Source: Kiritimatiellia bacterium (GTDB taxonomy: Bacteria > Verrucomicrobiota > Kiritimatiellia > RFP12 > UBA1067). Taken from it: 64,000 nt of DNA. Positions within the stretch are counted from its first letter, which is position 1, and each line of letters opens with the position of its first letter. The notes beneath the pieces are model-generated. The model saw nothing but the letters and a program-made list of their open reading frames with translations, was not told the DNA's origin and ran no database searches. The stretch spans positions 1,264-65,263 of the forward strand of contig JAZQBR010000203.1 in the NCBI GenBank assembly GCA_045545855.1. Reading direction: 5' to 3'. Position numbers and translations under genes: made by a program. This document shows positions 11,031-49,100 of the stretch, piece after piece.

Positions 11031-11300
11031 TCCAACTCCCAACTCCTCCACTCCTAACTCCCTCACTCCCACACTTCGCTACTCCCTCACGCCCCCACTC
11101 CTTCACGTCTCTCCACGCTTTCACCAAATTGACAAGTCCCTTCTTCCTCTGCACCCGGCTCACAAACAACAATACCTTCTTACCATCTGCACGCTCTACA
11201 CGGCTCAAACTCCCCCACTCCCTCTCTCCCACACTCTCAACTCTACATGTTTCTACACGTTCTACACGGCTATTTATATTCACCCCCAGCGGAGCGGCAA
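11000..11300. repeat. Strand-asymmetric CT-rich microsatellite-like array (AACTCC/CACTCC units)
   Basis: Runs of ctccaactccaactcatctctccaactcccaactcctccactcctaactccctcactcc. Overlapping ORFs (10946..11368, 10867..11424) are low-complexity artefacts. Confidence 0.6.
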
Positions 11301-11806: not shown

Positions 11807-12856
11807 GTGCGGGGAATGTCCATAAAGGGCGCGTTTCTTTCTATGCAGATAACAGTCAAATCATCATACCCCAAGGGCTGGCTTGACTATGACGGCCAAG
11901 TCGAGAAACTGAAGAAGCGAGGTCTGAAAATTGACGATGTGGAATTTGCCAAGCAGTTCCTTGCGTATTCCAACTACTACCGATTTACTGGCTACTGCCT
12001 CCGATTCCAGCACAAGGACGAATCCGGCGAGCGCGTGTTCAATGACGGTGTTTCCGTCTCCGACATAATCGACATCTACAAAATTGACAAAGGCCTCCGA
12101 GATTGTGTTTCAGATGCACTCGGAGCGATTGAGATTAGTTTCCGTTCCGCCGTTGCATACCATTTTGCGGAGGCACACGGGGCTTTTGGACATACGATAA
12201 AGGAAAATTTCGTCCGTCCATTCATAATGCGCCGGACAGATGCAAATGGTCGAGAGCAGCCATCCCCTTATGACGAGTGGCATGAGGGTCTTGTCTCTGA
12301 AACGCGGCGTTCAAATGAATTGTTCGTCAAACATTTTGAGGCGAAATATCTCCAGTTCCCCGATCTTCCTATCTGGACTGCGCTTGAGATATGCTCCTTC
12401 GGAACACTCTCCAAGATGTTCAAGAATATGCTGCGGTTTGACATGAGACCTATCGCCGCAAGATATTCTCTTCAACCTTCGACGCTGGATTCATGCATGC
12501 ATTCCTTCGTCTATGTCCGCAACATATGTGCGCACCATAGCAGACTGTGGGACAAGGAATTCGCCATATCTCCACAACTGCCGCCCGGCAGGAAATGGGA
12601 TGTCGTGCGCAATGCGAACAAAAAGTTGTATGCGGTAGCGATGTTGGTAAATTGGATGCTCGCGCATGATTTCTTCGGGAAAGCGATGCATTCAAACTGG
12701 AAGAAACGTTTTGAGACCGTCGTCGACTCTCTCTTCGATAGATTCCCAGAACTAGCACACCACACAGGTATTCCCGCCGACTGGAAGAACCAAGAAATTT
12801 GGTCTTCCATCAAGCCGGCTCAACCGCCCACGGAACCTAACCCATCTTCACTATAG
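11807..12856 (+). CDS. Abortive infection protein, Abi_2 family (AbiD/AbiF-like)
   Basis: Conserved Abi_2 block LEICSFGTLSKMFKNM and the signature VRNICAHHSRLWDKEF. Alternative start at 11843 (MQITVKSSYPKGW). Confidence 0.75.
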   Translation: MRGMSIKGAFLSMQITVKSSYPKGWLDYDGQVEKLKKRGLKIDDVEFAKQFLAYSNYYRFTGYCLRFQHKDESGERVFNDGVSVSDIIDIYKIDKGLRDCVSDALGAIEISFRSAVAYHFAEAHGAFGHTIKENFVRPFIMRRTDANGREQPSPYDEWHEGLVSETRRSNELFVKHFEAKYLQFPDLPIWTALEICSFGTLSKMFKNMLRFDMRPIAARYSLQPSTLDSCMHSFVYVRNICAHHSRLWDKEFAISPQLPPGRKWDVVRNANKKLYAVAMLVNWMLAHDFFGKAMHSNWKKRFETVVDSLFDRFPELAHHTGIPADWKNQEIWSSIKPAQPPTEPNPSSL

Positions 12857-12932: not shown

Positions 12933-13020
12933 ACTCATCCACTCCTAACTCCCCCACTCCTAACTCCCCCACTCTCAACTCCTCCACTCTCAACTCCCCC
13001 ACTCACTCACTTTATACTTC
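12900..13020. repeat. Second CT-rich microsatellite-like array (AACTCC/CACTCT units)
   Basis: ctccaactcaaaactcatccactcctaactcccccactcctaactcccccactctcaactcctccactctcaactcccccactcactcac. Confidence 0.6.
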
Positions 13021-13376: not shown

Positions 13377-13426
13377 AAATGATAAAACAGGTCAGACCTA
13401 TTTTATCATTTTAGTCTTCGCGGGGC
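13377..13426. repeat. 50-bp direct repeat copy 1 containing a 13-bp perfect-arm palindrome (GATAAAACAGGTC/AGACCTATTTTATC)
   Basis: aaatgataaaacaggtcagacctattttatcattttagtcttcgcggggc. A second copy lies at 13551..13600. Confidence 0.55.
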
Positions 13427-13550: not shown

Positions 13551-13600
13551 AAATGATAAAATAGGTCAGACCTATTTTATCATTTTAGTCTTCGCAGGGC
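13551..13600. repeat. 50-bp direct repeat copy 2 with internal palindrome
   Basis: aaatgataaaataggtcagacctattttatcattttagtcttcgcagggc, 174 bp from copy 1. Confidence 0.55.
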
Positions 13601-22028: not shown

Positions 22029-22844
22029 TCACCTAAACCACTTATAGCCGTAATAGCCGATGTACTCGTGGATGAACGAGTTATTGCGGGCGAAGGCGTC
22101 GAAGCTCGGCAACAGACCACGCCATTTGAAAGGTTCATCCTTCCACGGCAATGCCTGATAATCCGTCGCGGCCGGGATGCACTCTATCTCAGGCGCATAC
22201 TTTTTGAACATGTACAAGCTTCGTTTCATGTGACATGCGCTCGTCACCAACAATATACTTGGCTTCTTTGCGACCTCTGCTCCTTTGAGCCTCTGCGTTA
22301 CAATTTCTCCAACAAATTTTGCGTTCTCCTCGGTGTTCACCGCCTTGTCCTCCAACACAACAGCCTCACGCGGAACACCCAAATCCACAAGCAATTTCAC
22401 ATCCCCGAACTCGGCACCGACATTGCTTGAAATGACGATAGGCGCTTTCCCAGCCTTCCAGAGCCTTGCCGCATGCCATGGCCGGTCCGCCGCCTCATTC
22501 ATGCAGGCGTAGGGATAGCATTCGTCACCCCAAACGCCTCCGCCCATCAAAACAATCGCATCAGCTTTCGTCATATCCTCCGCCAACTGTACAGGGTAAT
22601 CCTCTTCAAGCGGCAACGCCAGCCAACCGCCGACAATCGGCATCGACCAAAACCAGAACCATGACAAGGCCGTTCCCAAAGTCCACATCACTGCTTTACG
22701 CTTTTTGAGCAGGGCAAACGTCTGCCCCAAGGCAACAGCCACAATGCCTACAAACAGCGGATTGGCGACAAAACCGACAATCTTATTTATCGTGTTCACA
22801 ATTTCATGCAACCATGTAGAACATGTAGAACGTATAGAAACCAA
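22029..22844 (-). CDS. YdcF/ElyC-like DUF218 family protein (start uncertain)
   Basis: ILLVTSACHMKRSLYMF and VLMGGGVW motifs of DUF218 with an N-terminal TM segment. The listed N-terminal residues STCSTWLHE are encoded by a CATGTAGAA repeat arm, so the true start is probably downstream. Confidence 0.55.
   Translation of the reverse strand: MVSIRSTCSTWLHEIVNTINKIVGFVANPLFVGIVAVALGQTFALLKKRKAVMWTLGTALSWFWFWSMPIVGGWLALPLEEDYPVQLAEDMTKADAIVLMGGGVWGDECYPYACMNEAADRPWHAARLWKAGKAPIVISSNVGAEFGDVKLLVDLGVPREAVVLEDKAVNTEENAKFVGEIVTQRLKGAEVAKKPSILLVTSACHMKRSLYMFKKYAPEIECIPAATDYQALPWKDEPFKWRGLLPSFDAFARNNSFIHEYIGYYGYKWFR
22812..22840. repeat. Solo arm of TGTAGAA-unit element (ccatgtagaacatgtagaacgtatagaa)
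   Basis: Three tandem (C/A)TGTAGAAC units with no inverted partner nearby, between the GT4 stop and the ydcF-like gene. Confidence 0.5.
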
Positions 22845-22864
22845 TCACCAACCACCAAAGACTA

Positions 22865-24130
22865 TCAACTGACCACTTCCCCGTAAATCTCCATTAGTCG
22901 CTTGTAGTTCGCTTCTTCTGAATATTTAGTTTCAGCCTCGTGCTTTGCCGCTGCACATACTTCGTCATAATCTGAACGCGACAGAAACCGCTTTATCGCC
23001 GCCGCACATGCCTCTGCATTGCCAGCCTCAAACACTTCACCGAAACGGTTTTCCTGCACGATCTCTGGCAAGGCACCAAGATTGCTCGTCACAACAGGCG
23101 TTCCCTCTAGCATTGATTCCACGACCGTCAATCCAAATGTCTCCCACCATTCACTTGGAAGGACAGTAGCCTTGGATTTAGCCATAAGACGGAGTACTTC
23201 AGCGGCTGATTTCAGGCCGACAAACTCAACATCCCCCCCGTCGGCAAGTTTCTCAAGCTCCTGCCGATCAACACCATCGCCGACTATTATCAGCTTGAGG
23301 TTATTTAACCATGTAGAACATGTAGGAGCATGTAGATGTTCTTTATGACAAATAATCTTGAAAGCCTTTATAAGAGTTTCGACACCTTTCTCTTTCGATA
23401 GCCGCCCAACATAAACTATCTGATCTTTCTTAAGGATGGGGGATGAGGGATGTGGGATGGGGGATGGGGGTGTTATTCTCATCCCTCCTATCTCATCTCG
23501 CATCCCTATCACAAAATTGCCCTTCACAGCAATTTTGTGTTCTGGCCAGCCATATTCAACCATCTTCCGCTTCTGGAACTCGCTCAGTACAATAAACCTT
23601 GAAACCCACTTTGGCAACCGCCTTCGATAAAGCGCAATGTTGATTGCAAGCGGCAATGTTGCCGCCAGACTTCCGCGATAGCAACGATACTTGATTCCAT
23701 CACATACACATCTCTTATCCAAACACAGCGAGCACACTTTCCCGTCCCTCGTCGGCACGCCTGCCGCACAAGCCATTCGATAGTTGTGTAGAGTCATCAC
23801 GACCTGCGCATACTTGCTCGCCGCACGAACCGCCAACGGGCTGATAAGCGGGAAGGTGTTATGGAAGTGAACGACATCCGGCTTGAATTCTCTACATTTC
23901 TTCGCAACCGCCCGCGCCGCGAACGGATTGCCGACCGTACACAGCGCCCCTTTGATTTTACCCAAGATCCTTTTAATTGCATTGCCGCACCGTATTTCAT
24001 CACTATGCCGGGCATATACAGCGACCTCATGTCCATGCTTCTCCAGCATGGCCTTCTCTGCCTCGAAGACCTTGTTCTCGCCTGACGGCGCCGATGAGCC
24101 ATAGTAGTTATGGACAAGGAGAATCCTCAT
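22865..24130 (-). CDS. Glycosyltransferase, GT4 family, carrying two in-frame repeat-element insertions
   Basis: MRILLVHNYYGSSAPSGENKVFE... N-domain and ...ETFGLTVVESMLEGTPVVTSNLGALPEIV C-domain. The segments HLHAPTCSTWLNN and ITPPSPIPHPSSPIL are encoded by repeat elements at 23301..23337 and 23435..23510. Confidence 0.7.
   Translation of the reverse strand: MRILLVHNYYGSSAPSGENKVFEAEKAMLEKHGHEVAVYARHSDEIRCGNAIKRILGKIKGALCTVGNPFAARAVAKKCREFKPDVVHFHNTFPLISPLAVRAASKYAQVVMTLHNYRMACAAGVPTRDGKVCSLCLDKRCVCDGIKYRCYRGSLAATLPLAINIALYRRRLPKWVSRFIVLSEFQKRKMVEYGWPEHKIAVKGNFVIGMRDEIGGMRITPPSPIPHPSSPILKKDQIVYVGRLSKEKGVETLIKAFKIICHKEHLHAPTCSTWLNNLKLIIVGDGVDRQELEKLADGGDVEFVGLKSAAEVLRLMAKSKATVLPSEWWETFGLTVVESMLEGTPVVTSNLGALPEIVQENRFGEVFEAGNAEACAAAIKRFLSRSDYDEVCAAAKHEAETKYSEEANYKRLMEIYGEVVS
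23301..23337. repeat. TGTAGAA-unit element arm inside GT4 CDS (tatttaaccatgtagaacatgtaggagcatgtagatg)
   Basis: Shares the TTTAACCATGTAGAAC terminus with the elements at 28984 and 34190 and is read in-frame. Confidence 0.55.
23435..23510. repeat. G-rich palindromic element (GGGATGAGGGATGTGGGATGGGGGATGGGGG ... CTCATCCCTCC...CATCCCTATC) inside GT4 CDS
   Basis: Tandem GGGATG units on the left and complementary CATCCC units on the right. Read in-frame (PPSPIPHPSSPI). Confidence 0.5.
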
Positions 24131-24600
24131 GTTTAATTAGCCGTGTAGAACGTGTAGATCGTGTAGAATTATGCGGTGATGGTACGACGCTCGAATTTAT
24201 AGGAACCAAAATTTACAAGAAGTCCAACAGGATGCCGCGTGATCTTCAAGTAGTTTATAATCTGGGCAAAGTGTTCAGGAGCAAACGTTTTAACGGCCTT
24301 AAGCTCAACTATCAAGCTATCATTTACAAACATGTCTACAAAATACTCCCCGACACAATATCCGTCCCTGTCGAACACTTTAAGCGGTTTTTGTCGTTCG
24401 ACTTTATAGCCCGCAATTACAAGCCTATGCTCCAAGGCCGCCTCATAAACCTTTTCCAGCAATCCCGTGCCAAAGTATTCATGCACCCCATACGCAATCT
24501 GACCTACATCAGCTGCCAGTTTCCTTAATTCATCAGCGCAACCATCCATACTTCCCACCTTCTGCACGTTTCTACACGTTCTACACGGTTAGAACCCTTC
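24131..24600. mobile_element. ~470-bp cassette bounded by inverted arrays of CGTGTAGAA units, carrying a GxxExxY gene
   Basis: Left terminus ttaattagCCGTGTAGAACGTGTAGATCGTGTAGAA (24133..24168). Right terminus cacgTTTCTACACGTTCTACACGGttagaacc (24561..24600) is its inverted complement. The left end abuts the GT4 start codon and the right end overlaps the 3' end of the kinase-like gene. Confidence 0.55.
24169..24549 (-). CDS. GxxExxY family protein (PD-(D/E)XK-like small protein)
   Basis: MDGCADELRKLAADVGQIAYGVHEYFGTGLLEKVYEAALEHRL... contains the GLLEKVY = GxxExxY motif. About 126 aa from ATG at 24549 (the ORF track begins at an upstream GTG). Confidence 0.65.
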   Translation of the reverse strand: MDGCADELRKLAADVGQIAYGVHEYFGTGLLEKVYEAALEHRLVIAGYKVERQKPLKVFDRDGYCVGEYFVDMFVNDSLIVELKAVKTFAPEHFAQIINYLKITRHPVGLLVNFGSYKFERRTITA

Positions 24601-25465
24601 CCCTCCTTCTACACGGATATGCATCAATTCCCAACAGCCCTTTGACCTGCTTCTTAAACCAGGATTCATCCTTGCCCTCGACCCACTGCCCTGCGTCTTC
24701 CCAATCCCAGACATACAATTTGCCATCCACGATAGAACAGTTCCACGGAGCAAAGTCGCCGTGCGACAAACCCGCCCTTCTCAATTCGTCCAGAAATACA
24801 TAATGCTCCTTCTGCATCCGAACAGGGCTTTTGCCTTTCGGCAATACCGACTGCGCACTCCATGTCCATGCCCCATCATGCCCGACATCGCCTATGGCAA
24901 CAGGTACTTGCGCACACAAAGGCGTCATCATCAGCCTTTTCAGCACGTCCACCTCTTCCCTGATCGCCTCTGCCGCCTTATCTGTCCTTCCCAACTTCAA
25001 TATGATTTCATTTGTGTTTAACACAGAGTCACAGAGACGCAGAGGATTGGGAGAGTCAGAAGAAATCTCTGTGCCTCTGTGCCTCTGTGTTAAAACCTTC
25101 ACCAGCACCGTCAACTTGGACTTCGCCGAATCGTTTCCCATATAAAGCGTTATCCACTCTATCTTCTTTGCGAACTTTGCGTTCTTTGCGGCTAAATCAT
25201 CTATCGCTTTCCCTATTACCTCGTGTCCATCCAGTTCATCAAACCGCTTGATTGGCCCATGAACCATCTTCTCGATGGGCAGCCATGCGAACCATCCCAG
25301 AACCTTTACAGCCCACTTCAGCACCTTGCGCCCTGGCGTGTGCATCGCCAGCCCTGCCCGCTTGCTTGCGGCAGATGAAAGGTCAATCCACACGCGCGGT
25401 TTCGGAGACGGAAGGCCAAGGAATCTGTGCATAGATATTTTCATGTGCACCTCATGATACAACAT
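24581..25465 (-). CDS. Phosphotransferase-family kinase-like protein (APH/choline-kinase fold)
   Basis: Brenner motif LSHGDFAPWN and DWE motif VWDWEDAG. An in-frame palindromic element lies at 25019..25092. The C-terminus overlaps the cassette TIR. Confidence 0.5.
   Translation of the reverse strand: MLYHEVHMKISMHRFLGLPSPKPRVWIDLSSAASKRAGLAMHTPGRKVLKWAVKVLGWFAWLPIEKMVHGPIKRFDELDGHEVIGKAIDDLAAKNAKFAKKIEWITLYMGNDSAKSKLTVLVKVLTQRHRGTEISSDSPNPLRLCDSVLNTNEIILKLGRTDKAAEAIREEVDVLKRLMMTPLCAQVPVAIGDVGHDGAWTWSAQSVLPKGKSPVRMQKEHYVFLDELRRAGLSHGDFAPWNCSIVDGKLYVWDWEDAGQWVEGKDESWFKKQVKGLLGIDAYPCRRRGRVLTV
25019..25092. repeat. Palindromic element built from CACAGAG units (cacagagtcacagagacgcagagg ... cctctgtgcctctgtg) inside CDS
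   Basis: Tandem 7-mers on the left, their complement on the right, and a ~25-bp loop. Translated in-frame within the kinase-like protein. Confidence 0.5.
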
Positions 25466-27768: not shown

Positions 27769-28980
27769 TTACAATACCCTCCTAATATTGCTATAATCGC
27801 AGGAATCAACTCCGATTTCACACAAAACAGTCGAATCCACGCCCCACAATTTACGTGCCTCTCTTTGGTTTTCCCCAGTGGCGACAATCAAGCGATTTGT
27901 TTCGGCGGCACGTCTTGCTGCCATTCGAGGACGCAGAAGGAAATGAGAATGACACCAGTTTATTATATTCCTTGCAGCAAATTCAAGCACACCAAACATA
28001 CCCATAAGGGGCAAGAGCCGCCAAGCAGTATAGCCCAGTCCACCGATAGGCCCCCAGGCAAAAGGGACTTTAAGTTTCCAAAGATAACCCGGCTCGCGAA
28101 AGCCCACCATATTCAACTGATGCACAAGATCGAATCCAACAATTTTGTGCAAATCACACGCTTTCTTATATGCACGCCATTGCCAGACGCGATAGAACCA
28201 ATAGTAGCTTGGGGGCCATATCTTGCGAAGCAACCGCGCTCTTGGCTTGCGAATGAATGTCCAGTGGACGTTCTGCATTTCGTCGGGATGATCGGCAAGA
28301 TATTTTTCAATATCCGGACGCCACTTCTCTTCTTCGACAATTGCCCACACTTCGTTCTCCTTGGCAATCATCTTTAGGAAATGCCACCCCATGCCCGGCT
28401 CCGACCCCCTGTATGGGGAACAGGCGTAAACTGAAACCAAAACTTTTTTGCCGCCACCGCCATAAATATCTTTCAAGACTTTTGCTTTTTCCGTCCAAAG
28501 ATACCGCTTGGCCTTTTCAATTGCGCCCCTTGACAATTTTTCACGCAATTCCCGATTCTTCAACCTGCAAATTGCCTTTCCGAACCCGGCAATCACTTCT
28601 CTGGGGAGCCCAATCGGGATTTTTATTCCGCAAGTATCATCAACTACATCTGAAAAGCCGCAGTGGTCGAGGCAGATGACAGGCTTACCCGCAGACAACG
28701 CTTCGATCAGAACCGTAGAGGTCAAATCCCTTAGACTTGTAATTACAAAGACATCTGAGTCCGCGACTACTTTCTGCGCTTCGGCCTTCGGCAGCCAACC
28801 ATGCCACGTGATTTTGTCGTTGACGCCAAGCCGCGACGCCAAACGCTGATAATACTTGCGCAACTTGCCGTCACCCAGCACATCAACCCGTATAGAACTG
28901 TTTTCGATACCGGCAACGGCATTCTCAAGAACAGACAAAGCCTTGCCGCGCGTATATTGTCCTGACCAAGCAATCTTCAT
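27769..28980 (-). CDS. GT4-like protein with inverted domain order (C-terminal Rossmann domain first, N-terminal domain second); possibly a rearranged gene
   Basis: The first ~160 aa carry C-domain motifs (VDVLGDG...DVFVITSLRDLTSTVLIEALSAGKPVICLDHCG). After GGGGKK comes an N-domain (KVLVSVYACSPYRGSEPGMGWHF...FDLVHQLN...IVATGENQREARKLWGVDS). Confidence 0.45.
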   Translation of the reverse strand: MKIAWSGQYTRGKALSVLENAVAGIENSSIRVDVLGDGKLRKYYQRLASRLGVNDKITWHGWLPKAEAQKVVADSDVFVITSLRDLTSTVLIEALSAGKPVICLDHCGFSDVVDDTCGIKIPIGLPREVIAGFGKAICRLKNRELREKLSRGAIEKAKRYLWTEKAKVLKDIYGGGGKKVLVSVYACSPYRGSEPGMGWHFLKMIAKENEVWAIVEEEKWRPDIEKYLADHPDEMQNVHWTFIRKPRARLLRKIWPPSYYWFYRVWQWRAYKKACDLHKIVGFDLVHQLNMVGFREPGYLWKLKVPFAWGPIGGLGYTAWRLLPLMGMFGVLEFAARNIINWCHSHFLLRPRMAARRAAETNRLIVATGENQREARKLWGVDSTVLCEIGVDSCDYSNIRRVL

Positions 28981-28983
28981 TTT

Positions 28984-29228
28984 ATTTAACCATGTAGAGC
29001 GTGTAAAGTTATGCCGTAATTGTGCGACGCTTTAATTTGCACGAACCAAAGTTTACGAGAAGACCTGCAGCGTTATGAAGAGTCGATTCATAAGCCTTTT
29101 CAAATAAGTCATTCTCAAAATATTCGTATACATCATACGCCACTTGCCCTACTCCCGAAGCGAGTTCTCTCAATTCATCTACTTCATCCATGCACCACCT
29201 CCACTCTACACGATCTACACGGCTATAC
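28984..29228. mobile_element. Degenerate second copy of the CGTGTAGAA-TIR cassette with a decayed GxxExxY gene
   Basis: Termini tttatttaaccATGTAGAGCGTGTAaag (28984..29008) and cacctccactCTACACGATCTACACGGctatac (29195..29226). The internal sequence is homologous to 24165..24330 but carries a deletion. Confidence 0.5.
29009..29191 (-). pseudogene. GxxExxY gene remnant (internal deletion)
   Basis: MDEVDELRELASGVGQVAYDVYEYFENDLFEKAYESTLHN...AGLLVNFGSCKLKRRTITA parallels the intact copy (…VGLLVNFGSYKFERRTITA) but lacks ~35 central residues. The listed ORF 29009..29305 reads through the flank. Confidence 0.5.
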
Positions 29229-30569
29229 ATACCTTTCCTCCATTCGTCCCATAATGAATGCAAGCGCAGCATCGACGCTTCCTTGCAGCAACATTGTCGT
29301 GTCAATCCATACTGCTCGCCTATTGCCGTCGCAAAACTTCTTCAAGTCCGTTACTTGCCGCCGCACTTCTTCCAACGACGTTTCCGGCTTGCGCGCATAT
29401 ATCTTTTCCGGGTCGCCGCCAAGGCATAAAATCAAGTCCGGCTTTGGTATGAACCACGAAAAGAAGCGCGCCATGCCAGTCGGCAGCTTGACGGCGCACC
29501 GTCTGGGATCGATCATATACTCGTAATAGTAGCGGTCGCAAATGACTATAGTAGGACGCTTCACAAGCCACGGGAATATTTTGACATAATAGCCAAGCGT
29601 ATAGTCGATGTAGTAATAGAAGAATCTAAACACCGACGCAATCCAGCCCGACGTCTTGCCTCCATGCGGATTGGTGACCGGTCCGATCATCGCGGGTTTC
29701 CCCGCCAACCGCGCCAGACTCGGCAAAAGCCCTGGGCGCAGATGGCGATATTCGACAGGATGGTGCATCATCTGATACAGCACGGGCGTCACTTTCTCGA
29801 TAAGCGTCGATTTGCCGCTGCCATCCGTCCCCAGAAACGCAACACAATATCCGGGATATTTGAGAAGCCGTCTATAGCGTTGCTTGATGTTGTTCAATTT
29901 TATTCTTGCAAGCGACAGCCAATGGAATCCGGCAATCTGCCGTATCCAAAGCGCACGGACAAGTCGTTTTGAATCGCGGAAGATCTCCTTGTCCGAACAT
30001 TCCCCTGAAAGCAGCTTCTCCACAAGCGCCCATCCCTTTGCGCCGTAGCACCCAATCATAGCCGCCTTCACGCCATTGGGATTCGCCGCATAAGCCGCCC
30101 TCGCCCGTGGATAATAATCTTTCTTGGTCCGACGGTTCGGCATAATCTCCTTGATGAAACTCGCCACATCGGAAAGCCCGCCAAGTCTGTAAAACGAATC
30201 TTTCTCCAACACCCGCTCCGAAAATGCTCTGGCGGAATCCATATACGGAATGCCAAAATACATAAAGCCGGGGAAGAGGTCGATGTGAAGCCCCCACCAC
30301 GTTCCGTCCGCATGCCGCCCGCCGAGGCAGGTAATCGTCGCCTCCACCGTGTACTTTACGGTAAATCCGCCATTGTATTTTTTCGCTATTTCATCTGCAG
30401 TGGCGAGAACCTTCCCGACCTCGCACGGCCCGTCGGCGAACAGATCGAGATCGCTGCCGCCAAGCGATTCCGGCAGCGTTTCGTTGTTGCGCATCACGGC
30501 GTACCGGACGCCGCGCTCCTTCAGCACCGCAAAGAAATCAAGCAAAAATAGGGTTTCTGGTGTTTTCAT
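29223..30569 (-). CDS. Two-domain protein with a C-terminal P-loop NTP-binding domain (nucleotide/sugar kinase-like), function unknown
   Basis: Walker A FLGTDGSGKSTL at aa ~245. The N-terminal ~200 aa contain GGSDLDLFADG (a possible nucleotidyltransferase-like GS...D.D motif). 448 aa, in the GT operon. Confidence 0.45.
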   Translation of the reverse strand: MKTPETLFLLDFFAVLKERGVRYAVMRNNETLPESLGGSDLDLFADGPCEVGKVLATADEIAKKYNGGFTVKYTVEATITCLGGRHADGTWWGLHIDLFPGFMYFGIPYMDSARAFSERVLEKDSFYRLGGLSDVASFIKEIMPNRRTKKDYYPRARAAYAANPNGVKAAMIGCYGAKGWALVEKLLSGECSDKEIFRDSKRLVRALWIRQIAGFHWLSLARIKLNNIKQRYRRLLKYPGYCVAFLGTDGSGKSTLIEKVTPVLYQMMHHPVEYRHLRPGLLPSLARLAGKPAMIGPVTNPHGGKTSGWIASVFRFFYYYIDYTLGYYVKIFPWLVKRPTIVICDRYYYEYMIDPRRCAVKLPTGMARFFSWFIPKPDLILCLGGDPEKIYARKPETSLEEVRRQVTDLKKFCDGNRRAVWIDTTMLLQGSVDAALAFIMGRMEERYV

Positions 30570-31657
30570 CTACTCTCCTTGACCAATCTCTCAACCGACA
30601 ACCTCAGGTCATATTTGAGCAACGATTCGTTGCTACGGGCAGGCAGACGGTCAATGGCCGCCTTGAAGTCAACCATATCGTTACAAGCAAAAACAGTACC
30701 GCTTATGCCATCCTCTATCATAACCGCCGCGCCCAAATGGCTGGCGACCACACACGGAGTTCCCCACTGCAAAGCCTCTGCGACAACTGCTCCGAATGTT
30801 TCTGAATGACTGCACAATACAAGACCGTCCGCCATTGCCATCATCGCGTAGAGGGAATCACCCTCCTTCCTGCCAGCGAACACCACCCGATCATCAAGTT
30901 TCAACGCGGCTACCATCGCTTTTAATTCCGTATCCAATACTCCGTCGCCAACTAAAACAAGTCCCGTTGTTTTAGGTTGCTCTCGCATCTGCTCTATTAG
31001 CCAAGGCAGATTCTTGACTTTCGCAAAGCGCCCTACGAACACAAGTACACGGTTCCATACCTTGGGGCAGTTCGCTTCTCGCCATGCACGCCCCGCCGCA
31101 TAGATTTTGTCTGCGTTCTTTCGCATTGTCGCCGTATCATGGATTATGGGCACGACAGAGTAGTTGTTGGTGGTTAGTCGATAGTCGTCGGTTGATAGAG
31201 AGCGATAAGCGTCAGCGGCGGCTTGACTGGGAACGATTATCTTTTCGACATTTCGCAGAACCCAATCGCGCATGATACGTCGCAATCCTCTCCGTGACCT
31301 AATCTGTTCGGCGCTGTCATCCATGCTCGTCCATATTTTGGCGCTAACGAGCCCAAGCTTCTTCAACAGAACCAGTTCAAGCGTGAGCGGGCTTGCTTCG
31401 TAGGCAAGAATGATGTCTGGACATTCACGACGGACAATCCCAAGGATGCCAGTGCGGATGCATCGTCCGCGTATGCAAACGCCGTTTGTCAAATGCTCAT
31501 ACGGCACTCTAAGCCTTTCCAGCAATGCTTTCTGGTCGAACTTCTGAGTCTGCAAATTCTCCTGAAGGAATACCATTTTCAATTCCGCCAGCTCACCGAG
31601 CAGATTGAAGAAATCAACCCGGTATGGCGCAAGAGCAGGATGGAAGCAGATAATCTT
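30566..31657 (-). CDS. Glycosyltransferase, GT4 family
   Basis: Starts at MKIICFHPALAPYRVDFF (ATG at 31657, overlapping the upstream stop). C-terminal ETFGAVVAEALQWGTPCVVASHLGAAVMIEDGISG. Confidence 0.65.
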   Translation of the reverse strand, partial: KIICFHPALAPYRVDFFNLLGELAELKMVFLQENLQTQKFDQKALLERLRVPYEHLTNGVCIRGRCIRTGILGIVRRECPDIILAYEASPLTLELVLLKKLGLVSAKIWTSMDDSAEQIRSRRGLRRIMRDWVLRNVEKIIVPSQAAADAYRSLSTDDYRLTTNNYSVVPIIHDTATMRKNADKIYAAGRAWREANCPKVWNRVLVFVGRFAKVKNLPWLIEQMREQPKTTGLVLVGDGVLDTELKAMVAALKLDDRVVFAGRKEGDSLYAMMAMADGLVLCSHSETFGAVVAEALQWGTPCVVASHLGAAVMIEDGISGTVFACNDMVDFKAAIDRLPARSNESLLKYDLRLSVERLVKESR

Positions 31658-32859
31658 CATTGACCGCGAACTACTCCTTCCATCCATTGATACATTCCGC
31701 CGACAAGAACATCCCACTGCTTGCGGGCAAGGAACCACTTCTTTATCGTCCCGAACTTCGCTCGTTTACGCTCTTCGTCCCAAGCAAGCACTTCACGGAT
31801 CTTGGCGACATAATCTTCCGCCGTGTCGCCTTCCGCAAACTCCACGACCTCGGCATAGTCAGGCGACAAGCTTTCAAGTCGCGTACTGACGACCGGGCGA
31901 CCGAAACTAAGGTAGTGCGGCAGCTTGCTTGGGTAGTTTAATATGTTGTCGGGATGATGGGGATCGCGTACATTCAGCAATACATCCGCGTTACGGCATA
32001 TGCGGTTCATCTCTTCCTCTTCCACGAAGCCTGGCAACTCAACGTATGGGTTGTCGCCAAACAACTTCGCAAGGATACGGCAACTGGACTTGCCGCAGAA
32101 TATGAACTTTATGTCGGGCGCAGCCATTTTGCGGACAACCTCAACCATGAAATCAAGTCCGCGCCACTGATCGAGCGCTCCTGTATGGACAAGTGTCTTA
32201 GTCGTTAGCCGCTGGTCGTTAGCCGTTAGCTTGTGGTCATCAACACCACTATCGACTAACGACTGACGACTATCGACTTCTTCTCCTCCACACCAACCAT
32301 CCGCCCCGCCGTCCATATGGTATTTTGGCACATCAACAGGGCAATGCGTATGCACCCACCACGAAAGCGAGACGATGCCGCTTGAATATTGCCCAGCCCG
32401 TTTCACCCAACCCCAGTCATCCTTGCGCGGATCGTCGCCATCAAGAATTATGGGGAAACACGGAACACCCATGCCGCGCAGGATTTTCATTGTGCGCACA
32501 AGGTAGGGCAAATGGCAATTGTAAAATATGGCCACATCGATTTTCTTCTGGCGAGCGATTTTCCTTGCCTCGACCGGGTATCGCCATACATACCACCAGT
32601 CGCGGAAATATTTGATTACAGGATATGAAAGTGCCACGCAATCCCACCCGTCAGGGTAGAGACGCTTATCGTATCCACGCCACAACACCTTGCCCTTCGG
32701 CCATGACACTTCGTATGTGTGGGTGAGTGCCGTCACATTGGATATCTTCGAGAGTGCAGTCAGGAACCCTCGCGCCCATTTCGCCGCCGCAAGCGAGACC
32801 GGGCGGTTCATCTGCGCCCATTCGCTGTCGTTCGGGCCTATGTAGAGTATGTTCAGCAT
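31657..32859 (-). CDS. Glycosyltransferase, GT4 family, with in-frame palindromic insertion
   Basis: MLNILYIGPNDSEW... and a GT4 C-domain (VLLNVRDPHHPDNILNYPSKLPHYLSFGRPVV). The segment VDSRQSLVDSGVDDHKLTANDQRLT is encoded by the GTCGTTAG-unit element at 32198..32278. Confidence 0.65.
   Translation of the reverse strand: MLNILYIGPNDSEWAQMNRPVSLAAAKWARGFLTALSKISNVTALTHTYEVSWPKGKVLWRGYDKRLYPDGWDCVALSYPVIKYFRDWWYVWRYPVEARKIARQKKIDVAIFYNCHLPYLVRTMKILRGMGVPCFPIILDGDDPRKDDWGWVKRAGQYSSGIVSLSWWVHTHCPVDVPKYHMDGGADGWCGGEEVDSRQSLVDSGVDDHKLTANDQRLTTKTLVHTGALDQWRGLDFMVEVVRKMAAPDIKFIFCGKSSCRILAKLFGDNPYVELPGFVEEEEMNRICRNADVLLNVRDPHHPDNILNYPSKLPHYLSFGRPVVSTRLESLSPDYAEVVEFAEGDTAEDYVAKIREVLAWDEERKRAKFGTIKKWFLARKQWDVLVGGMYQWMEGVVRGQ
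32198..32278. repeat. Palindromic element of GTCGTTAGCC units (tagtcgttagccgctggtcgttagccgttagc ... cgactaacgactgacgactatcgac) inside CDS
   Basis: Tandem units and their complements. A partial copy of the unit (accaacgactaacgacc) also occurs intergenically at about 49078..49100. Confidence 0.5.
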
Positions 32860-32860
32860 A

Positions 32861-33907
32861 TTACGCCCTTCCCCCTGTCAACAAATTGAATATCCTCGGC
32901 GAACAACGCTTTGAAAGGAGGCCGACAAGGAGCGCCCCCCCCATCCCAGACAAGATTTTAAGGAGATACATCGTCAACGTTTGCAGATGAAACGCCAGCC
33001 CAACCCGTAACGCCACGGAAATCATCAATGTGTGGATTGCATAGATAAAGAACGTTAATCCGACAAATCTCCTGCTCAATGGCGATACACGATCAACCAT
33101 TTGCAGATTGGCAAACACTGCACACACGCCAGAGAAGACAAGCACTTTGTCTGCAATGTCAAACGCCATTTTGTTGCGATACACGCCGAACAAGACCTTG
33201 CAAACAATACTTGTGCAGAATATGGCAAGCACAAGATGTCTTCTATCGACAAGTGTTTTTCGCAATTCTAAGAAACTGTCGGCATCGCGCATTCTGAATC
33301 CAACCCATGATCCAACTGCGAGCCACAAGAAATTACCTGCGGCAAGCGGCAACGGCAGATAGTACCAGAACGTGCCTATCCACCCGGCAAGGAAGACGCA
33401 AATCAATACCACCCCATGCAATTTGTTCCGCAATAACGGAAGAATCAGGGGCGCAGCAAGCACATATATGAAAACTGTCTGCAAATACCAGAACTGCATG
33501 CAGCCAAGGCGGACATATGGGTCATAACCAAAAATCTTCGCCATAATTGACAAACCTTCATGCAATTCCCCAGACAGAAGCGCAAGCGCAAGATAAATGG
33601 CGTTCCATAGAACGAATGGAACATACAGCGTGATGAGTCGCTTCCTTATTTCATTGGTAAACCATGTGAACCATCCATTGCCCGGATATCCCTTGACAAG
33701 GAAGAACCCCGTGATCGTGAAGAAGATCGGTACGGCTATTCGTGGAACCGTGTATGTCCCCAGAAAATAGAACGCCGCCTCCAATTTGCCGACAGGCATC
33801 TCCCCAGCGAACCACGGCGCCATAGACTGGCAATGGATCGCGACAACAAGCAATGCGCACAGGAAAGCCACCGTGCGCAGACGCTCGCTTGTCTTGGCGG
33901 ATATCAT
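32861..33907 (-). CDS. Acyltransferase family 3 membrane protein
   Basis: N-terminal RTVAFLCALLVVAIHCQSM, with about 10 TM helices. A homopolymeric G-run encodes MGG near the C-terminus. Confidence 0.7.
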   Translation of the reverse strand: MISAKTSERLRTVAFLCALLVVAIHCQSMAPWFAGEMPVGKLEAAFYFLGTYTVPRIAVPIFFTITGFFLVKGYPGNGWFTWFTNEIRKRLITLYVPFVLWNAIYLALALLSGELHEGLSIMAKIFGYDPYVRLGCMQFWYLQTVFIYVLAAPLILPLLRNKLHGVVLICVFLAGWIGTFWYYLPLPLAAGNFLWLAVGSWVGFRMRDADSFLELRKTLVDRRHLVLAIFCTSIVCKVLFGVYRNKMAFDIADKVLVFSGVCAVFANLQMVDRVSPLSRRFVGLTFFIYAIHTLMISVALRVGLAFHLQTLTMYLLKILSGMGGALLVGLLSKRCSPRIFNLLTGGRA

Positions 33908-35196
33908 TTGCCTCGCTCCTGTTTGACAACGTTTTCAAGCGCGGCAATGTAACGCTTCACGACAGCGGTCATCATGAATCGTTCTTTCACGTTCCTTACG
34001 GCATTGCCAGACATCTTTGCCCTCGCCGAATAATCAAGCATCAAGTTCTCGATGCATTCCGCCAACTTCTCTGGTCTTGTTACGTTGCATACGACACCGC
34101 CCGCAACGGATGATTCCGATCTTTCCTTTTCATTTAGCCGTGTAGAACAGGGAGAACATGAAGGATTTTCTACACGCTCTACATTTTCTACATGGTTAAA
34201 TCCATCGATTCCCAACACCCACGGCACCGCGCCACTCTTCTCGCCGCCGACGCACGGGACTCCATGCGCCATCGCCTCTATGAAAACCATGCCAAAACTC
34301 TCTTCCAAGGACGGACTGCAAAATACATCCGCCTCTTTCTGCAACGCTCGCCGTATCATCTCCGAAGAGCCATAACCTCGCAACTCTATGCACCCGGAAT
34401 CGATGAGACGACCCATGCCATTCTGCCGCATCCAAGGATCGGCACCGCGTTGATCCATATAATGTCCATACACCACCAGCCGCCATTCCGGGTGTCTCGC
34501 ATGGAGCAGCGCAAATGCCTTGAAAAGCGTCTTAGAGTTCTTGAGGCGACCCCACTGCGTGACACACAATATCGTCCGCGCTTCGAGGCGGATTTCAATC
34601 CTGCCGGCCTGGGCGGTTTCTTCCTTAATGGCATTTGGAATAATCTCCACCGGCTTGCGATAGAAGTTGAAGTTTCGCAGATCTTCCGCCATGTGCGGAG
34701 AAACGGTAGCCATGTGCTTGACATGTGGAAAAACAAAGAACTGTGAATATATCGCCTTGAAAAGCGATGCGGCATTGCGCATTGTCCATACGACCCGCCA
34801 AGGAGAGTCATGCGCCACAACAAGCGTTGGAACGCCACTTTTCAGAGCAGCACGTGCATACTGATATGTCCAGTTCGCCAGTATGACATCCGGCTTTGCC
34901 TTATGTATTTCGTCAACCATACATGACACTTCTTTTGAATAGAACGTCATGTATTGATAGCGGCAACGTCTTTCGGGAACAATCCTGATCTCCAGACGGC
35001 CAGCCGTATAGGTGGTTGCCGCGGAATGGTTCATGTCTGTGACGACTACAGAAACCTCATGCCCGGAATCAACCAATGCAGCGACCAGATCGCTTCCGTA
35101 GTTGAAATCCCATCTGACGGACGGCAATTGCCTGTCGAACTTGAATCGTTCTGCAAGACAAGACAGCGTGACACGCCCTAAAAACGCTATCTTCAT
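33904..35196 (-). CDS. Glycosyltransferase, GT4 family, with an in-frame miniature CGTGTAGAA-TIR element
   Basis: Starts at MKIAFLGRVTLSCL (ATG at 35196). C-domain ...ADVFCSPSLEESFGMVFIEAMAHGVPCVGGE... The segment GFNHVENVERVENPSCSPCSTRLNEKERSE is encoded by the element at 34133..34202. Confidence 0.65.
   Translation of the reverse strand: MKIAFLGRVTLSCLAERFKFDRQLPSVRWDFNYGSDLVAALVDSGHEVSVVVTDMNHSAATTYTAGRLEIRIVPERRCRYQYMTFYSKEVSCMVDEIHKAKPDVILANWTYQYARAALKSGVPTLVVAHDSPWRVVWTMRNAASLFKAIYSQFFVFPHVKHMATVSPHMAEDLRNFNFYRKPVEIIPNAIKEETAQAGRIEIRLEARTILCVTQWGRLKNSKTLFKAFALLHARHPEWRLVVYGHYMDQRGADPWMRQNGMGRLIDSGCIELRGYGSSEMIRRALQKEADVFCSPSLEESFGMVFIEAMAHGVPCVGGEKSGAVPWVLGIDGFNHVENVERVENPSCSPCSTRLNEKERSESSVAGGVVCNVTRPEKLAECIENLMLDYSARAKMSGNAVRNVKERFMMTAVVKRYIAALENVVKQERGK
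34133..34202. mobile_element. Miniature (~70 bp) cargo-less copy of the CGTGTAGAA-TIR element (MITE-like) inside a CDS
   Basis: tttagCCGTGTAGAACagggagaacatgaaggattTTCTACACGCTCTACATTTTCTACATGGTTAAAtcc. Both termini match those of the 24131 and 28984 cassettes, with only ~20 bp between arms. Confidence 0.55.
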
Positions 35197-35606
35197 CTCT
35201 TGCCTCCAAGCAATGCAGGACAAAATCTCAATATTGCGACAGAAGCAACCCAGCTGACGCATATAGTCGCAAACATAATGCCGCAAAGCAGAATCGCAAG
35301 ACTTCCGCCAGTCAGGATGCATCCAGATGGCAATAAGCGGACGGACGCGACGATGATGAATTTATGCAATAGCATTATTCCGAGCGAACATTCCCCTATG
35401 CGCTTCCAAAGTGGATTCGAGAGGCATCCCGCGATGCCGGCAGACAGCGCAGCGCCGACAAGTCCGGACATCCATGCGATGTAACTGAACATAATCCTGT
35501 TAGACCAACCATTATCGTGCAACCAGTTAACCGACATGGCCACAGCCACAATGACAGGCACCCCAAGCATGCTCCACATCCCCCGGCAAACGACTTGCAT
35601 CATATC
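35193..35606 (-). CDS. Possible small polytopic membrane protein downstream of wzy (start uncertain; may be an acyltransferase C-terminal remnant)
   Basis: The listed ORF 35193..35912 overlaps the wzy-like gene by ~190 bp. Its distal 135 aa (MMQVVCRGMWSMLGVPVIVAVAM...IMLLHKFIIV...) are strongly hydrophobic. Confidence 0.25.
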   Translation of the reverse strand, partial: DMMQVVCRGMWSMLGVPVIVAVAMSVNWLHDNGWSNRIMFSYIAWMSGLVGAALSAGIAGCLSNPLWKRIGECSLGIMLLHKFIIVASVRLLPSGCILTGGSLAILLCGIMFATICVSWVASVAILRFCPALLGGKR

Positions 35607-47292: not shown

Positions 47293-47641
47293 AATATTAT
47301 ACCATTTCGCTGAAGTCCGGTCAATGGGACGCGAAACAGTTTATTGCTTCAAACTGTTGCATTGTTTTCCCGCACAAGATCAATCTCTAACTTGTTCAAC
47401 GCACATTCCCACGAGAGCATAATCCCTCCCGAAAACTTTCCGCAACAGTTTTCCTGTTGCATGGCGCGACAATGACGCATGGTCAGGCAGATTGTCGCGC
47501 GTTGCAGATGTGACACATTTTCCGTTCTCCACGACTTTCCAATGACCGCCTCGGGGCTGGCCGGGAAAGTCTCGGTTGACGCTGTCGGCCAGACCTGACG
47601 GCAATGAACAGAACAACACAATCCCGAAAGGAACCCGGAAA

Positions 47642-48106
47642 ATGGAAACAACACGGAACAAAGACAATCGCGGCTATGAGCTTGACGCCCTTGCCCGAAA
47701 AATGGAACGCGCCGCAGAAGTTGATTATATCCGCTGGGCGAACGCAAAGAAACGCCGCGCATGGACTGCCGGGGCATTGCGTCTCGACGACTGCCTGTTC
47801 GATGAAAACGGGGATGAGAGGGAAAACTCCCTGCTTTCCGACAACGGCAGAGGTGCCGAGTTGATTCGCCGCTGCGGGGAACCTGCGCCAAAGGCGAACA
47901 ATGCTTGGCGTAAGGAGTTCCGCCGCGTATTTTCGACCCTGAACGCTGTCGAGCAAGGCATTGTCCTCGCGTTGTCGAAGGATTCCCGCCCTCAAGTCGC
48001 CGCCCGCATGGCCTGGACGAACCGCATGCGCGTATATCGCACCATCGCGAAATTGCGCAAATTGCTCGCAACCGCCCATTCCCTCTGGCTGCGCCGCTGG
48101 GAATAA
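47642..48106 (+). CDS. Putative DNA-binding regulator with sigma-70 region-4-like HTH
   Basis: Internal ATG of ORF 47576..48106 (METTRNKDNRGYELDALARKMERAA...). C-terminal EQGIVLALSKDSRPQVAARMAWTNRMRVYRTIAKLRKLL resembles a region-4/LuxR-type HTH. Higher GC than neighbours. Confidence 0.35.
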   Translation: METTRNKDNRGYELDALARKMERAAEVDYIRWANAKKRRAWTAGALRLDDCLFDENGDERENSLLSDNGRGAELIRRCGEPAPKANNAWRKEFRRVFSTLNAVEQGIVLALSKDSRPQVAARMAWTNRMRVYRTIAKLRKLLATAHSLWLRRWE

Positions 48107-48242
48107 AAAACTTTCGCAGATGCCGCGTTGCACATCTCTCGGTTTCTGCGATTGTCAAATGAACACCTCTGTCGGCGATGCAGGACGCCAGGTGGCATCC
48201 CGCCGGCGAGGTTGAAGAAAGCACAAATAAAGGAATAAAGTT

Positions 48243-48977
48243 ATGGCTGCTGTTAAGCCTCAATTGAAATACCGCGTCGTCAATGGCTACAACCCAAAGA
48301 CGCGCGGAACCTGCAAGCGCCCCCAGATCACGGAACGCGAAACCTACTACCTCGATCAGGTGGTGCAATTCGCGCTGGACAACGGATTCGTCCGTGGCCA
48401 GTTCCAGGACATGAAGGGTGCGCTCAACGGGTTCATCGAATGCATCCAGTACCTCGGGCTGACCGGCAAGGCCGTCTCGCTCAACGACTGGCTCAGAGTC
48501 CATTCCGAACTCACGGGAACGGTCGGCGAAGACTACCAGCTCACGTCCGGCAACGACTTGCGCGTCCGCATCCAGGCTCTCAAGGAACTGAAGACGAGCG
48601 TGGACAAGTTCAGCTGGACGAACGTGAGCGACACGGGCGTTCTGCCGAAGATCGATTCGCTCATGTACGTTGGCGCTCCGAAAAGCGGTGAAATCAAGAA
48701 GTCTCTGGCCATCATCGCCACGGGACGCAATCTTGCGTTCAACGCCGCCTTGGGCGACACCGTGACGCTTATCTGGACGGAAGGCGACGAGGCCAAAACC
48801 GTTACCCTCACGCCTGCCGAGAGCGACTATTCGCACATGAAGTTCAACTGGCCGTCTGCATTGGCTGACGTGCCGGACGGAACCGAAATTACGTTCACCT
48901 TCACTCTCCACGGCGGAGTGGAAGGAGGCGCGGCCCATACGGCCACGAAAAGCGTGAAGCTTCTCGCTGCCGCATAA
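48243..48977 (+). CDS. Hypothetical protein (244 aa)
   Basis: Clean ORF with strong codon bias. The antisense 579-aa ORF 47349..49088 is an artefact of this high-GC block. Confidence 0.55.
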   Translation: MAAVKPQLKYRVVNGYNPKTRGTCKRPQITERETYYLDQVVQFALDNGFVRGQFQDMKGALNGFIECIQYLGLTGKAVSLNDWLRVHSELTGTVGEDYQLTSGNDLRVRIQALKELKTSVDKFSWTNVSDTGVLPKIDSLMYVGAPKSGEIKKSLAIIATGRNLAFNAALGDTVTLIWTEGDEAKTVTLTPAESDYSHMKFNWPSALADVPDGTEITFTFTLHGGVEGGAAHTATKSVKLLAAA

Positions 48978-48986
48978 GCTAATTAT

Positions 48987-49061
48987 CTCACGCAAAGTCC
49001 GTGACGTACGCAAAGTTTCATCCCTCAGGCGCCTTTGCGTCTTTAGCGGACTTTGCGTGAG
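48987..49061. repeat. Palindromic element of ACGCAAAG units (tctcacgcaaagtccg...cgcaaag ... ctttgcgt...cggactttgcgtgag), 10 bp after the stop codon
   Basis: Perfect 15-bp outer inverted repeat and inner CGCAAAG/CTTTGCG pairs. No downstream U-tract. Confidence 0.5.
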
Positions 49062-49100
49062 CGATCTATCCATACCACCAACCACCAACGACTAACGACC

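Follow-up and report, generated by a model that had tools for sequence, protein, structure and literature searches.

The window, that is, the whole 64-kb stretch of DNA that was analysed (contig JAZQBR010000203.1, from a probable gut Kiritimatiellia bacterium), contained a GT4 glycosyltransferase gene whose open reading frame (ORF), 22865..24130, includes two repeat tracts in frame, each in a predicted loop of the protein. A sequence-only reading of this gene had proposed that the peptides HLHAPTCSTWLNN and ITPPSPIPHPSSPIL were encoded by two repeat insertions about 100 bp apart, one of them ending like a neighbouring gene cassette. Both peptides and both tracts were found in the 421-aa ORF, the measured distance between the tracts was 98 bp, and the tract at site 2 had a 17-nt outer end identical to that of a cassette. 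Site 1, the linker between the two domains, was filled by a hairpin of GGGATGN heptamers, and site 2, the first helix-to-strand loop of the C-terminal domain, by a 9-mer element of the TGTAGAA type. The tracts and the related features of the window are shown in Table 1.

Table 1. Positions of the GT4 gene, its two tracts and related repeat elements in the 64-kb window
Feature	Position	Strand	Details
GT4 (GT-B fold) glycosyltransferase	22865..24130	-	Intact, 421 aa; Pfam, AlphaFold (AF2) model, Foldseek, dN/dS
Site 1, variable interdomain linker	23432..23512	-	Residues 208-233; complete GGGATGN heptamer hairpin
Site-1 G-rich arm	23434-23470		
Site-1 hairpin loop	23471-23478		8 nt
Site-1 C-rich arm	23479-23507		CATCCC type
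Site 2, loop between helix 250-262 and strand 279-283	23301..23356	-	Residues 259-277; TGTAGAA 9-mer element
Site-2 full arm	23306-23337	+	TAACC ATGTAGAAC ATGTAGGAG CATGTAGATG
Site-2 decayed opposite arm	about 23338-23356		TTATTTG.CAT.AAGAACAT
Full cassette	24138..24591	-	GxxExxY / PDDEXK_3 gene between inverted 3x9-mer TGTAGAA arms
Cassette gene	24169..24567		Mechanically called ORF; probable ATG at 24549; 126-132 aa; adjoins GT4
Cassette arms	24138-24169 and 24560-24591		Inverted repeats I8/I18
Truncated cassette	28982..29225	-	TGTAGAA arms around internally deleted GxxExxY ORF; intergenic
ORF-less TGTAGAA hairpin	34134..34203	.	Both arms, short loop; in frame in GT4 ORF 33904..35322; peptide FNHVENVERVENPSCSPCSTRL
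Solo TGTAGAA arm with ACCAACC x2.7	22809..22858	.	Spacer between GT4 stop codon and DUF218 start
Two TGTAGAA arms with GAGTGGG-type arrays	11187..11272	-	Beside GT4 gene fragment in spacer
TTTAAC-(RCAGAGNC)n hairpin (I2)	25017..25094	-	In frame in APH-like gene 24581..25465; absent in L001/L002
Solo GCAAAGAAC 9-mer arm	25163..25194	-	In frame in APH-like gene; peptide AAKNAKFAKK; absent in L001/L002
TTAGCCG heptamer hairpin (I4)	32198..32278	-	In GT ORF 31657..32859

The GT4 gene and its insertion sites

The ORF matched the Pfam families Glycos_transf_1 (3e-33) and Glyco_transf_4 (1.4e-14), and its layout was that of GT-B enzymes, with two Rossmann-like domains, Glyco_transf_4 at the N-terminus and Glycos_transf_1 at the C-terminus. 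An AlphaFold model made from 47 sequences reached a predicted template-modelling score (pTM) of 0.80, and its best Foldseek matches were MshA, BshA and PimA (E about 1e-19), which gave the fold as GT-B; a single-sequence search of the PDB returned nothing at 1e-10. The ratio of nonsynonymous to synonymous substitution rates (dN/dS) was 0.05-0.16 against seven orthologs, and because of these values the gene was judged to be under strong purifying selection. Sequence and modelled fold together mark it as a functional GT-B glycosyltransferase. Independent assemblies (L001/L002 and L212/L213) carried the same tracts, so an assembly artefact was ruled out.

For comparison, the best 120 of 3573 relatives were aligned as orthologs (P0001-P0120). 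The shortest orthologs (392-397 aa) have a linker of 10 aa before KKDQIVYVGRL at site 1 and, at site 2, 5 aa separating LIxAFK from KLxIVGDG. Against the 392-aa ortholog L003, the site-1 region of the window measured 102 nt versus 54 nt (+48 nt) and the site-2 region 105 nt versus 63 nt (+42 nt). The solved GT4 structure 2jjm, aligned with a family profile in which both inserts are insertion states, ran without gaps across both sites. Because the shortest orthologs are without the tracts and the 2jjm alignment is free of gaps, both segments were identified as lineage-specific insertions and not as conserved parts of GT4, which was the check that the sequence-only reading had called for.

The site-1 tract has four to five heptamer units in each arm. 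Tandem Repeats Finder (TRF) reported GGATGGG x5.3 in its G-rich arm (23434-23470, + strand), and the pattern GGGATGNGGGATG had five matches in the window (expected 0.53), all of them within this tract and including an inverted copy at 23494-23506(-). Its units are not perfect copies, and just two neighbouring ones are identical. As RNA, 23425-23515(-) folded into a single hairpin of -28.1 kcal/mol (z = -3.9), and none of 200 shuffles was equally stable. The predicted local distance difference test (pLDDT) score of the model was below 50 at residues 213-223 and 225-228 of this linker.

The TGTAGAA element at site 2 has the layout TA(A/G)CC, three 9-mers and, further on, their reverse complement. 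TRF reported CATGTAGAA x2.9 at 23310-23336 (+ strand). With up to two mismatches, the pattern TGTAGAACRTGTAG matched 13 times in the 64-kb window (expected 0.40), a number reached in none of 100 shuffles. The 17-mer TTATTTAACCATGTAGA occurred exactly at 23301 and 28982 (0 expected), the second copy being the end of the truncated GxxExxY cassette. By its sequence, the site-2 tract is of the same arm type as the element bracketing the neighbouring GxxExxY/PDDEXK_3 gene. Its RNA fold was weak (-10.3 kcal/mol, z = -1.5) because one arm is full and the opposite arm decayed. The model had pLDDT below 50 at residues 264-270.

The fillings of the two sites varied widely among the 120 orthologs. Read as peptides, they made up ~8 or more repeat families at site 1; for site 2 the number was 6 or more. 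Most orthologs carried at site 1 HVE or RVE three times (HVEHVEHVE), which the DNA of L004 identified as the TGTAGAA arm read on the sense strand, at the place where the window has the GGGATG hairpin. Other site-1 fillings were SGGVxSGGVE, corresponding to one half of the GAGTGGAGGAGTT hairpin found complete in L208, a GCAGAGAC hairpin in L206, EEPRNTQNTR, SQNPVNPVQE, a longer peptide starting FRQDSQDLQDL, and others. Site 2 was empty in some orthologs and elsewhere held the TGTAGAA element or SVSSVYSVVKN; at the DNA level, its fillings included a GCAAAG arm (L208), a GCAGAGA hairpin (L207) and a complete TGTAGAA hairpin in frame (L206). Complete in-frame hairpins were found at these sites in L206, L207 and L208. 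Half hairpins retained the N-terminal-side half at site 1 in three loci (L004, L205 and L207) and the C-terminal-side half at site 2 in four (L004, L205, L208 and the window, with its decayed remnant of the other arm). A third hot spot, in the N-domain after R47 (between HSDEIR and RLWGKIKG), was empty in the window and held, in orthologs, fillings such as GTGNGEWGTVS and GDGRVERVETCRLERELLAAKNAK, the start of the insert of P0011. The peptides at the sites were unconstrained across orthologs, their sequence following whichever DNA repeat occupied the site. To judge by these alignments, sites 1 and 2 are hot spots used again and again, with one element taking the place of another.

The GGGATG insert was retained in at least six alleles among the 120 orthologs. 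Its length differed by 7 aa, that is, 21 nt or three heptamers, in two independent pairs (window/P0002 and P0003/P0006), and L001 was shorter than the window by exactly 21 nt within the site-1 hairpin. Steps of this size are what slippage filtered for reading frame would predict, and the filtering by frame that the sequence-only reading had suggested is visible in them; the survey of length variants was made in a protein database, where frameshifted alleles would be invisible.

The gene around the tracts proved to be a mosaic. Identity between orthologs was 72-95% in the N-domain and 50-93% in the C-domain. A block of ~545 bp, from ~23010 to ~23555 and including both tracts, was ~99-100% identical in the window, L001 and L212. 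Upstream of it the window was ~80-85% identical to L001 and L212, with a dS of ~1.5 in the N-domain and different neighbouring genes, which points to a recent exchange of the segment between alleles. Against L004, identity was ~98% through site 2 and ~60% from ~50 nt beyond it. Pairwise-distance correlations between gene segments were low throughout (0.0-0.57), with 0.26 across the sites (N3 vs C1) and 0.12-0.30 within the N-domain.

Cassettes and arms related to the tracts

The protein of the cassette next to GT4 passed the family cut-off of TIGR04256 (2.7e-33; 114.8 bits, cut-off 35) and matched PF13366 at 2.6e-32 (112 bits). One end of the cassette reads TAACC GTGTAGAAC GTGTAGAAAC GTGCAGAAGG and the opposite end TTCTACACG ATCTACACG TTCTACACG GCTAA. 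The outer arm end supplies, with its TAA, the stop codon for the APH-like gene upstream. This gene's protein has a C-terminal tail (AYPCRRRGRVLTV, window 24581-24620) that passes via a partial TGTAGAA unit into the cassette arm, and the APH-like ortholog in L001 has a different C-terminal end.

A detector for arms (TA[AG]CC, then three similar 9-mers) found six arms in the window, the GT4 tract among them, versus 0.06 in shuffles. At the position of the truncated cassette, L001 and L004 have 13 nt or 0 nt, and this copy is an intermediate towards the ORF-less hairpin; the window holds a series of full cassette, deleted cassette, bare hairpin and solo arm. A ‘split GT4’ at 27769..30569 was considered and rejected, since L001 and L004 have two separate adjacent genes there, which makes the truncated cassette intergenic. 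In L004, the spacer between the GT4 stop codon and DUF218, where the window has its solo arm, measures 1 nt. There, the DUF218 protein (11700-11760) reads NRVGHVEHVNGW instead of the QRLKGAEVAK of the window, which is probably a further tract of the TGTAGAA type, in this case in a loop of another gene. In a spacer at window 11100-11190 (-) there is an isolated fragment of GT4, GKKVLLFVSRVQRKKGLVNLVKAWR, corresponding to the strand-helix piece between sites 1 and 2. It has a TGTAGAG arm next to it, with GGAGTGG-type arrays on its other side, and looks like the remnant of a deleted GT4.

Repeat arms were also present in frame in other genes of the window. The GCAAAGAAC unit of the solo arm in the APH-like gene also flanks the PDDEXK_3 gene of L004, where a GxxExxY gene at the window position is only 52% identical and has GCAAAGAAC arms. 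Because the solo arm of that unit sits in the window itself, unit types follow cassette lineages and not genomes. Two further GT genes of the window (ORFs 33904..35322 and 31657..32859) contain in-frame hairpins. In ORF 31657..32859, known from the window sequence alone, the TTAGCCG hairpin lies directly upstream of the sole region that matches a GT profile (residues 221-329). Rfam covariance models at gathering score gave no match in the whole 64-kb window.

The scan of metagenomes for GGGATGN x3.4 returned at least 120 stretches, on contigs of 21-74% GC. Among the matches listed, ~25 shared one arrangement of invariant order, a G-rich array, a loop of 9-45 nt and a C-rich array. Most of these hairpins had no long ORF across them, i.e. 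were mostly intergenic, and many of the sequences inspected had about four units per arm. A coding fraction for the metagenomic arrays was calculated (45/100 under long ORFs) and dropped, given that high GC yields spurious ORFs. A local hidden Markov model (HMM) for PDDEXK_3 found no gene near the GGGATG arrays among the 120 metagenome loci listed, and this absence led to cargo of other kinds: two GGGATGA arms bracket a 23S_rRNA_IVP gene in L119 (PF05635, 1.3e-17), and GGGATGA arms bracket a PIN_3 gene with a small upstream ORF, a PIN toxin pair, in L169.

For cassettes beyond the window, one genome per species was scanned with two GxxExxY proteins, which gave 80 PDDEXK_3 loci (L005-L084). The closest were in ruminant-gut Kiritimatiellae metagenome-assembled genomes (85%, 77% and 76% identity), the loci on which the gut Kiritimatiellia origin given above for the window is based, and the remainder were mainly in Verrucomicrobiota, with some in Nitrospirota, Hydrogenedentota, Chloroflexota and elsewhere. 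Arrays with a 9-nt period (14 or more of 18 self-matches) were present on at least one flank in 49 of 79 PDDEXK_3 loci, versus 1 of 239 control segments, the usual arm unit being RCARAGAAC with TTAACC in front. The best period of the 159 PDDEXK_3 flanks was 9 in 62 and 7 in none. The 12 flanks of six IVP genes (L039, L098, L119, L209-L211) behaved the other way round, with 9 of 12 scoring at least 0.79 at period 7 and 0 at period 9. The arm period tracks the cargo family, which could mean that the cargo proteins recognise the arrays. In L007 (1290-2360) a GxxExxY gene has an inner and an outer pair of TGTAGAA arms, a cassette nested inside a second pair, and upstream of it stand, next to one another, a heptamer array of TCGTTAG, a further TGTAGAA arm and a GCAGAGAC hairpin. 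The nesting suggests insertion into resident hairpins.

Previous work has listed the function of PDDEXK_3 as ‘Unknown’, with multiple transfers (PMC3424549), has described 23S_rRNA_IVP as uncharacterised and scattered in rRNA insertions (PMC11270868), and has located 23S_rRNA_IVP genes between cas genes (PMC3936711).

Origin and fate of the inserts

The analysis shows the inserts to be foreign to the gene, in frame, located in predicted loops, members of cassette-related families, subject to frame-keeping changes of length, and placed at recurrent sites. The TGTAGAA family is dispersed and multi-copy within the 64 kb, and the GGGATG family has a single locus there, though it is common in metagenomes. 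Hairpin structure was seen in the GGGATG tract itself and, for the TGTAGAA family, in full hairpins (34134-34203 and L206). The inserts are present in some orthologs and absent in others while the host ORF remains intact under purifying selection, and they are predicted to lie at the surface, in low-pLDDT coil between modelled elements. The claim that coding insertion is frequent in this lineage was borne out by the two inserts in the APH-like gene, the two further GT genes with hairpins and the many families in the 120 orthologs. The description of the GT4 tracts as two unrelated insertions held for their units, which differ, and did not hold for their kind, both being inverted arrays of short tandem units with periods of 9 and 7 nt.

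We consider it probable that the tracts are foreign in-frame elements in two GT4 loops, MITE-like derivatives of cassettes (MITE being short for miniature inverted-repeat transposable element) retained as passengers under selection for frame. They would be non-autonomous deletion derivatives of two sister cassette classes, one having 9-nt arms with GxxExxY genes and the other 7-nt arms with 23S_rRNA_IVP genes. Arrival would have been by insertion at the DNA level or by homing, with a preference for AT-rich TA sites or resident hairpins; TA borders most arms, but it is also part of the inverted end. The PD-(D/E)XK nuclease encoded by the cassette is the leading candidate for the mobilising enzyme of the 9-mer family. 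Later, slippage may have changed the length and deletion may have removed one arm. The survivors of selection would be those with a length in multiples of three, free of stops in the frame used and located in disordered surface loops, and the encoded peptides would be passengers with no function of their own.

Several observations weigh against this account. The TGTAGAA arm at site 1 is as long as the non-repeat linker of distant orthologs, so that insertion and conversion are indistinguishable there. Neither a target-site duplication nor a precise empty/filled pair was found among the available orthologs, all of which are too diverged. The GGGATG family occurs at one locus in the 64-kb window and at none of the 84 loci compared, and its tract may have come with a recombined gene segment, given that the ~545-bp block with both tracts is nearly identical in three alleles that are diverged elsewhere. 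Only six genes underlie the link of heptamer arms to IVP genes. To our knowledge, transposase-like activity is known for neither GxxExxY nor IVP proteins.

Four other explanations were weighed against an origin from mobile cassettes. Local slippage and expansion of chance short repeats in tolerant loops, without a mobile element, would agree with the changes of +/-3 heptamers (window vs L001 and P0003 vs P0006), and in Borg elements tandem repeats arise inside ORFs and create disordered regions (PMC9879509). Slippage would not, however, provide the site-2 tract with the 17-nt non-repeat outer end and the TA(A/G)CC head of cassette arms; the unit families recur in loci and genes that are unrelated, the tracts are inverted and not simple tandem arrays, and in orthologs a single site is occupied by many families with no relation to each other, all of which leaves purely local growth improbable. 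Glycosyltransferases are classic phase-variable genes, and the tracts could be switches, either as a contingency locus, in which heptamer slippage switches the GT on and off, or by inversion of the 93-nt segment between 9-mer arms. The heptamer length is not a multiple of three, and in L004 the arms are complementary at 28 of 32 positions and flank 93 nt whose inversion creates stop codons, which would be the OFF state. The heptamer units are imperfect, though, with few identical neighbours, and all length variants seen are in frame, in a protein database that would hide frameshifts. The partner arm at site 1 of the window has been replaced by the GGGATG hairpin, which leaves no inverted pair, and no invertase was noticed, neither invertase nor inverted alleles having been searched for. 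An intragenic inverton was rejected on the lack of an intact arm pair in the window and the stop codons produced by inversion in L004, and a switch of either kind seems quite unlikely.

The mosaic structure of the gene raised the possibility that the tracts act as recombination joints for swapping GT domains or segments, a cassette-like shuffling of the glycan locus. Identity jumps do occur near the tracts (window vs L001/L212 and vs L004), and the two domains differ in their ranges of identity between orthologs. Nevertheless, the breakpoints lie 20-50 nt off the tracts, the right boundary at ~23010 has no repeat, and the segment correlations, low everywhere, were no lower across the sites than within domains, on which ground the joint role was rejected. 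Mosaicism is general in this gene, no joint function is claimed for the tracts, and we give the idea little credence. Selection of the inserted peptides for a function of their own, e.g. as flexible or proline-rich linkers tuning domain closure or interactions, would suit the recent spread of the block with both tracts between diverged alleles and the persistence of the GGGATG insert. Against it stand the lack of constraint on the site peptides, which follow the resident DNA repeat, the existence of short orthologs without inserts and the low model confidence in the inserted segments, and such a function is very improbable.

Extending the derivation from cassettes beyond this gene, we put forward more tentatively that inverted arrays of short tandem repeats are the termini of widespread, undescribed bacterial mobile cassettes whose cargo recognises the arms by their period (9 bp for GxxExxY, 7 bp for IVP). 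ORF-less hairpins would spread from them and recolonise permissive protein loops, rRNA and operon spacers, landing preferentially in resident hairpins or overwriting them.

Related systems and other repeats of the window

Palindromic elements in frame in bacterial genes are already known. The Rickettsia palindromic elements (RPEs), reportedly described by Ogata et al. in 2000, are of this kind. MITEs can also create in-frame fusions, as stated in work on the QMITEs of Coxiella (PMC5896051). Like them, the present tracts are short palindromic repeats, dispersed within the 64 kb in the case of TGTAGAA, in frame in functional genes, tolerated at the surface and variable among orthologs. Unlike them, the tracts have arms that are arrays of 7-9-nt tandem units, with one architecture common to many unit families; insertion recurs in the same two or three loops, and the full-length relatives carry GxxExxY or IVP genes and not a known transposase. 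The lineage also differs from that of the RPEs, being Kiritimatiellia/Verrucomicrobiota and not obligate intracellular.

The intervening sequences of 23S rRNA, whose 23S_rRNA_IVP proteins are four-helix bundles, resemble the elements in being small cassettes with inverted ends at a tolerated site of an essential gene and in having ORF-bearing and ORF-less forms. The rRNA inserts are removed at the RNA level, unlike the inserts of this study, which are translated as additional loop residues. No mention of tandem-heptamer arms around IVP genes was met in the papers found. Repetitive extragenic palindromes (REPs), with their hairpin doublets (REPINs) and REP-associated tyrosine transposases (RAYTs), are similar in that a single-copy gene lies between inverted short repeats that are also dispersed as hairpin doublets. 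They differ in that a REP is one palindrome, outside genes by definition, and in that RAYT is related to Y1 transposases, whereas the elements here have tandem-array arms, PD-(D/E)XK or four-helix-bundle genes and copies inside ORFs.

The GGGNATC heptamers of Xanthomonas and Nostoc (G3N4) prefer four units and are dispersed, mostly intergenic, direct arrays that form G-quadruplexes and are under-represented within coding sequence (PMC4692102). The GGGATGN tract is like them in its 4-5 units and unlike them in that its array forms a hairpin with a complementary array and is part of the reading frame of a gene. Borg repeats share with the tracts the addition of fast-evolving, disordered protein segments by in-frame repeat DNA, but they are direct tandem repeats arising in place (PMC9879509), whereas the tracts are inverted arrays of dispersed, cassette-related families. 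No description of tandem-repeat arms around GxxExxY, PDDEXK_3 or IVP genes was found in the literature searched, most subscription journals lying outside it, and within that literature the element class appears undescribed. The features that set the elements apart from the known ones are the tandem-array arms, the design shared by many families, the reuse of the same loops and the period-specific link to GxxExxY and IVP genes. The cassettes sharing the element ends are little studied and seem widespread in bacteria.

If the broader proposal is true, GxxExxY/PDDEXK_3 and 23S_rRNA_IVP, very common families of unknown function, would gain a testable DNA partner in the period-specific arms and would be placed in the life style of selfish elements. 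Enzymes of free-living or gut bacteria, and not only those of Rickettsia, appear to gain new disordered loops steadily from repeat hairpins. Low-complexity peptides such as HVEHVEHVE, STCSTWL, SPIPHPSS and HKEHKE in proteins of the Planctomycetes-Verrucomicrobia-Chlamydiae (PVC) group may be footprints of elements, and apparent gene fusions or extensions, e.g. by a stop codon that an arm supplies, may be effects of elements.

Other repeats were noted in the window. At 10960-11060 and 12860-12960 there are two direct copies of a ~60-100-nt unit, GCCGCCCTCTCGGACG..CCCT.AAA.GCAATCAGGT...ACTCACACC..., which pass into CCAACTC/CCACTCC arrays and bracket a 349-aa ORF (11807..12856). A 35-nt self-palindrome, AAATGATAAAA(C/T)AGGTCAGACCTATTTTATCATTT, occurs twice in a region of short ORFs, at 13377-13411 and 13551-13585, 139 nt apart (I1/I20). 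A GCAAAG-type hairpin (I3; 48987-49061) with 29-nt arms that are 83% complementary lies at the 5' edge of ORF 47349..49088 and is followed by ACCACCA x4. The repeats at 61229-61388 and 61497-61546 are a cluster of interlocking, GC-rich palindromes of 24-nt period, after which come arrays of TCAATCCTG x3.4 and ACCTCTAC x2.2, and the repeats of this region (61229-61546) are of another type than the TGTAGAA and GGGATG elements.

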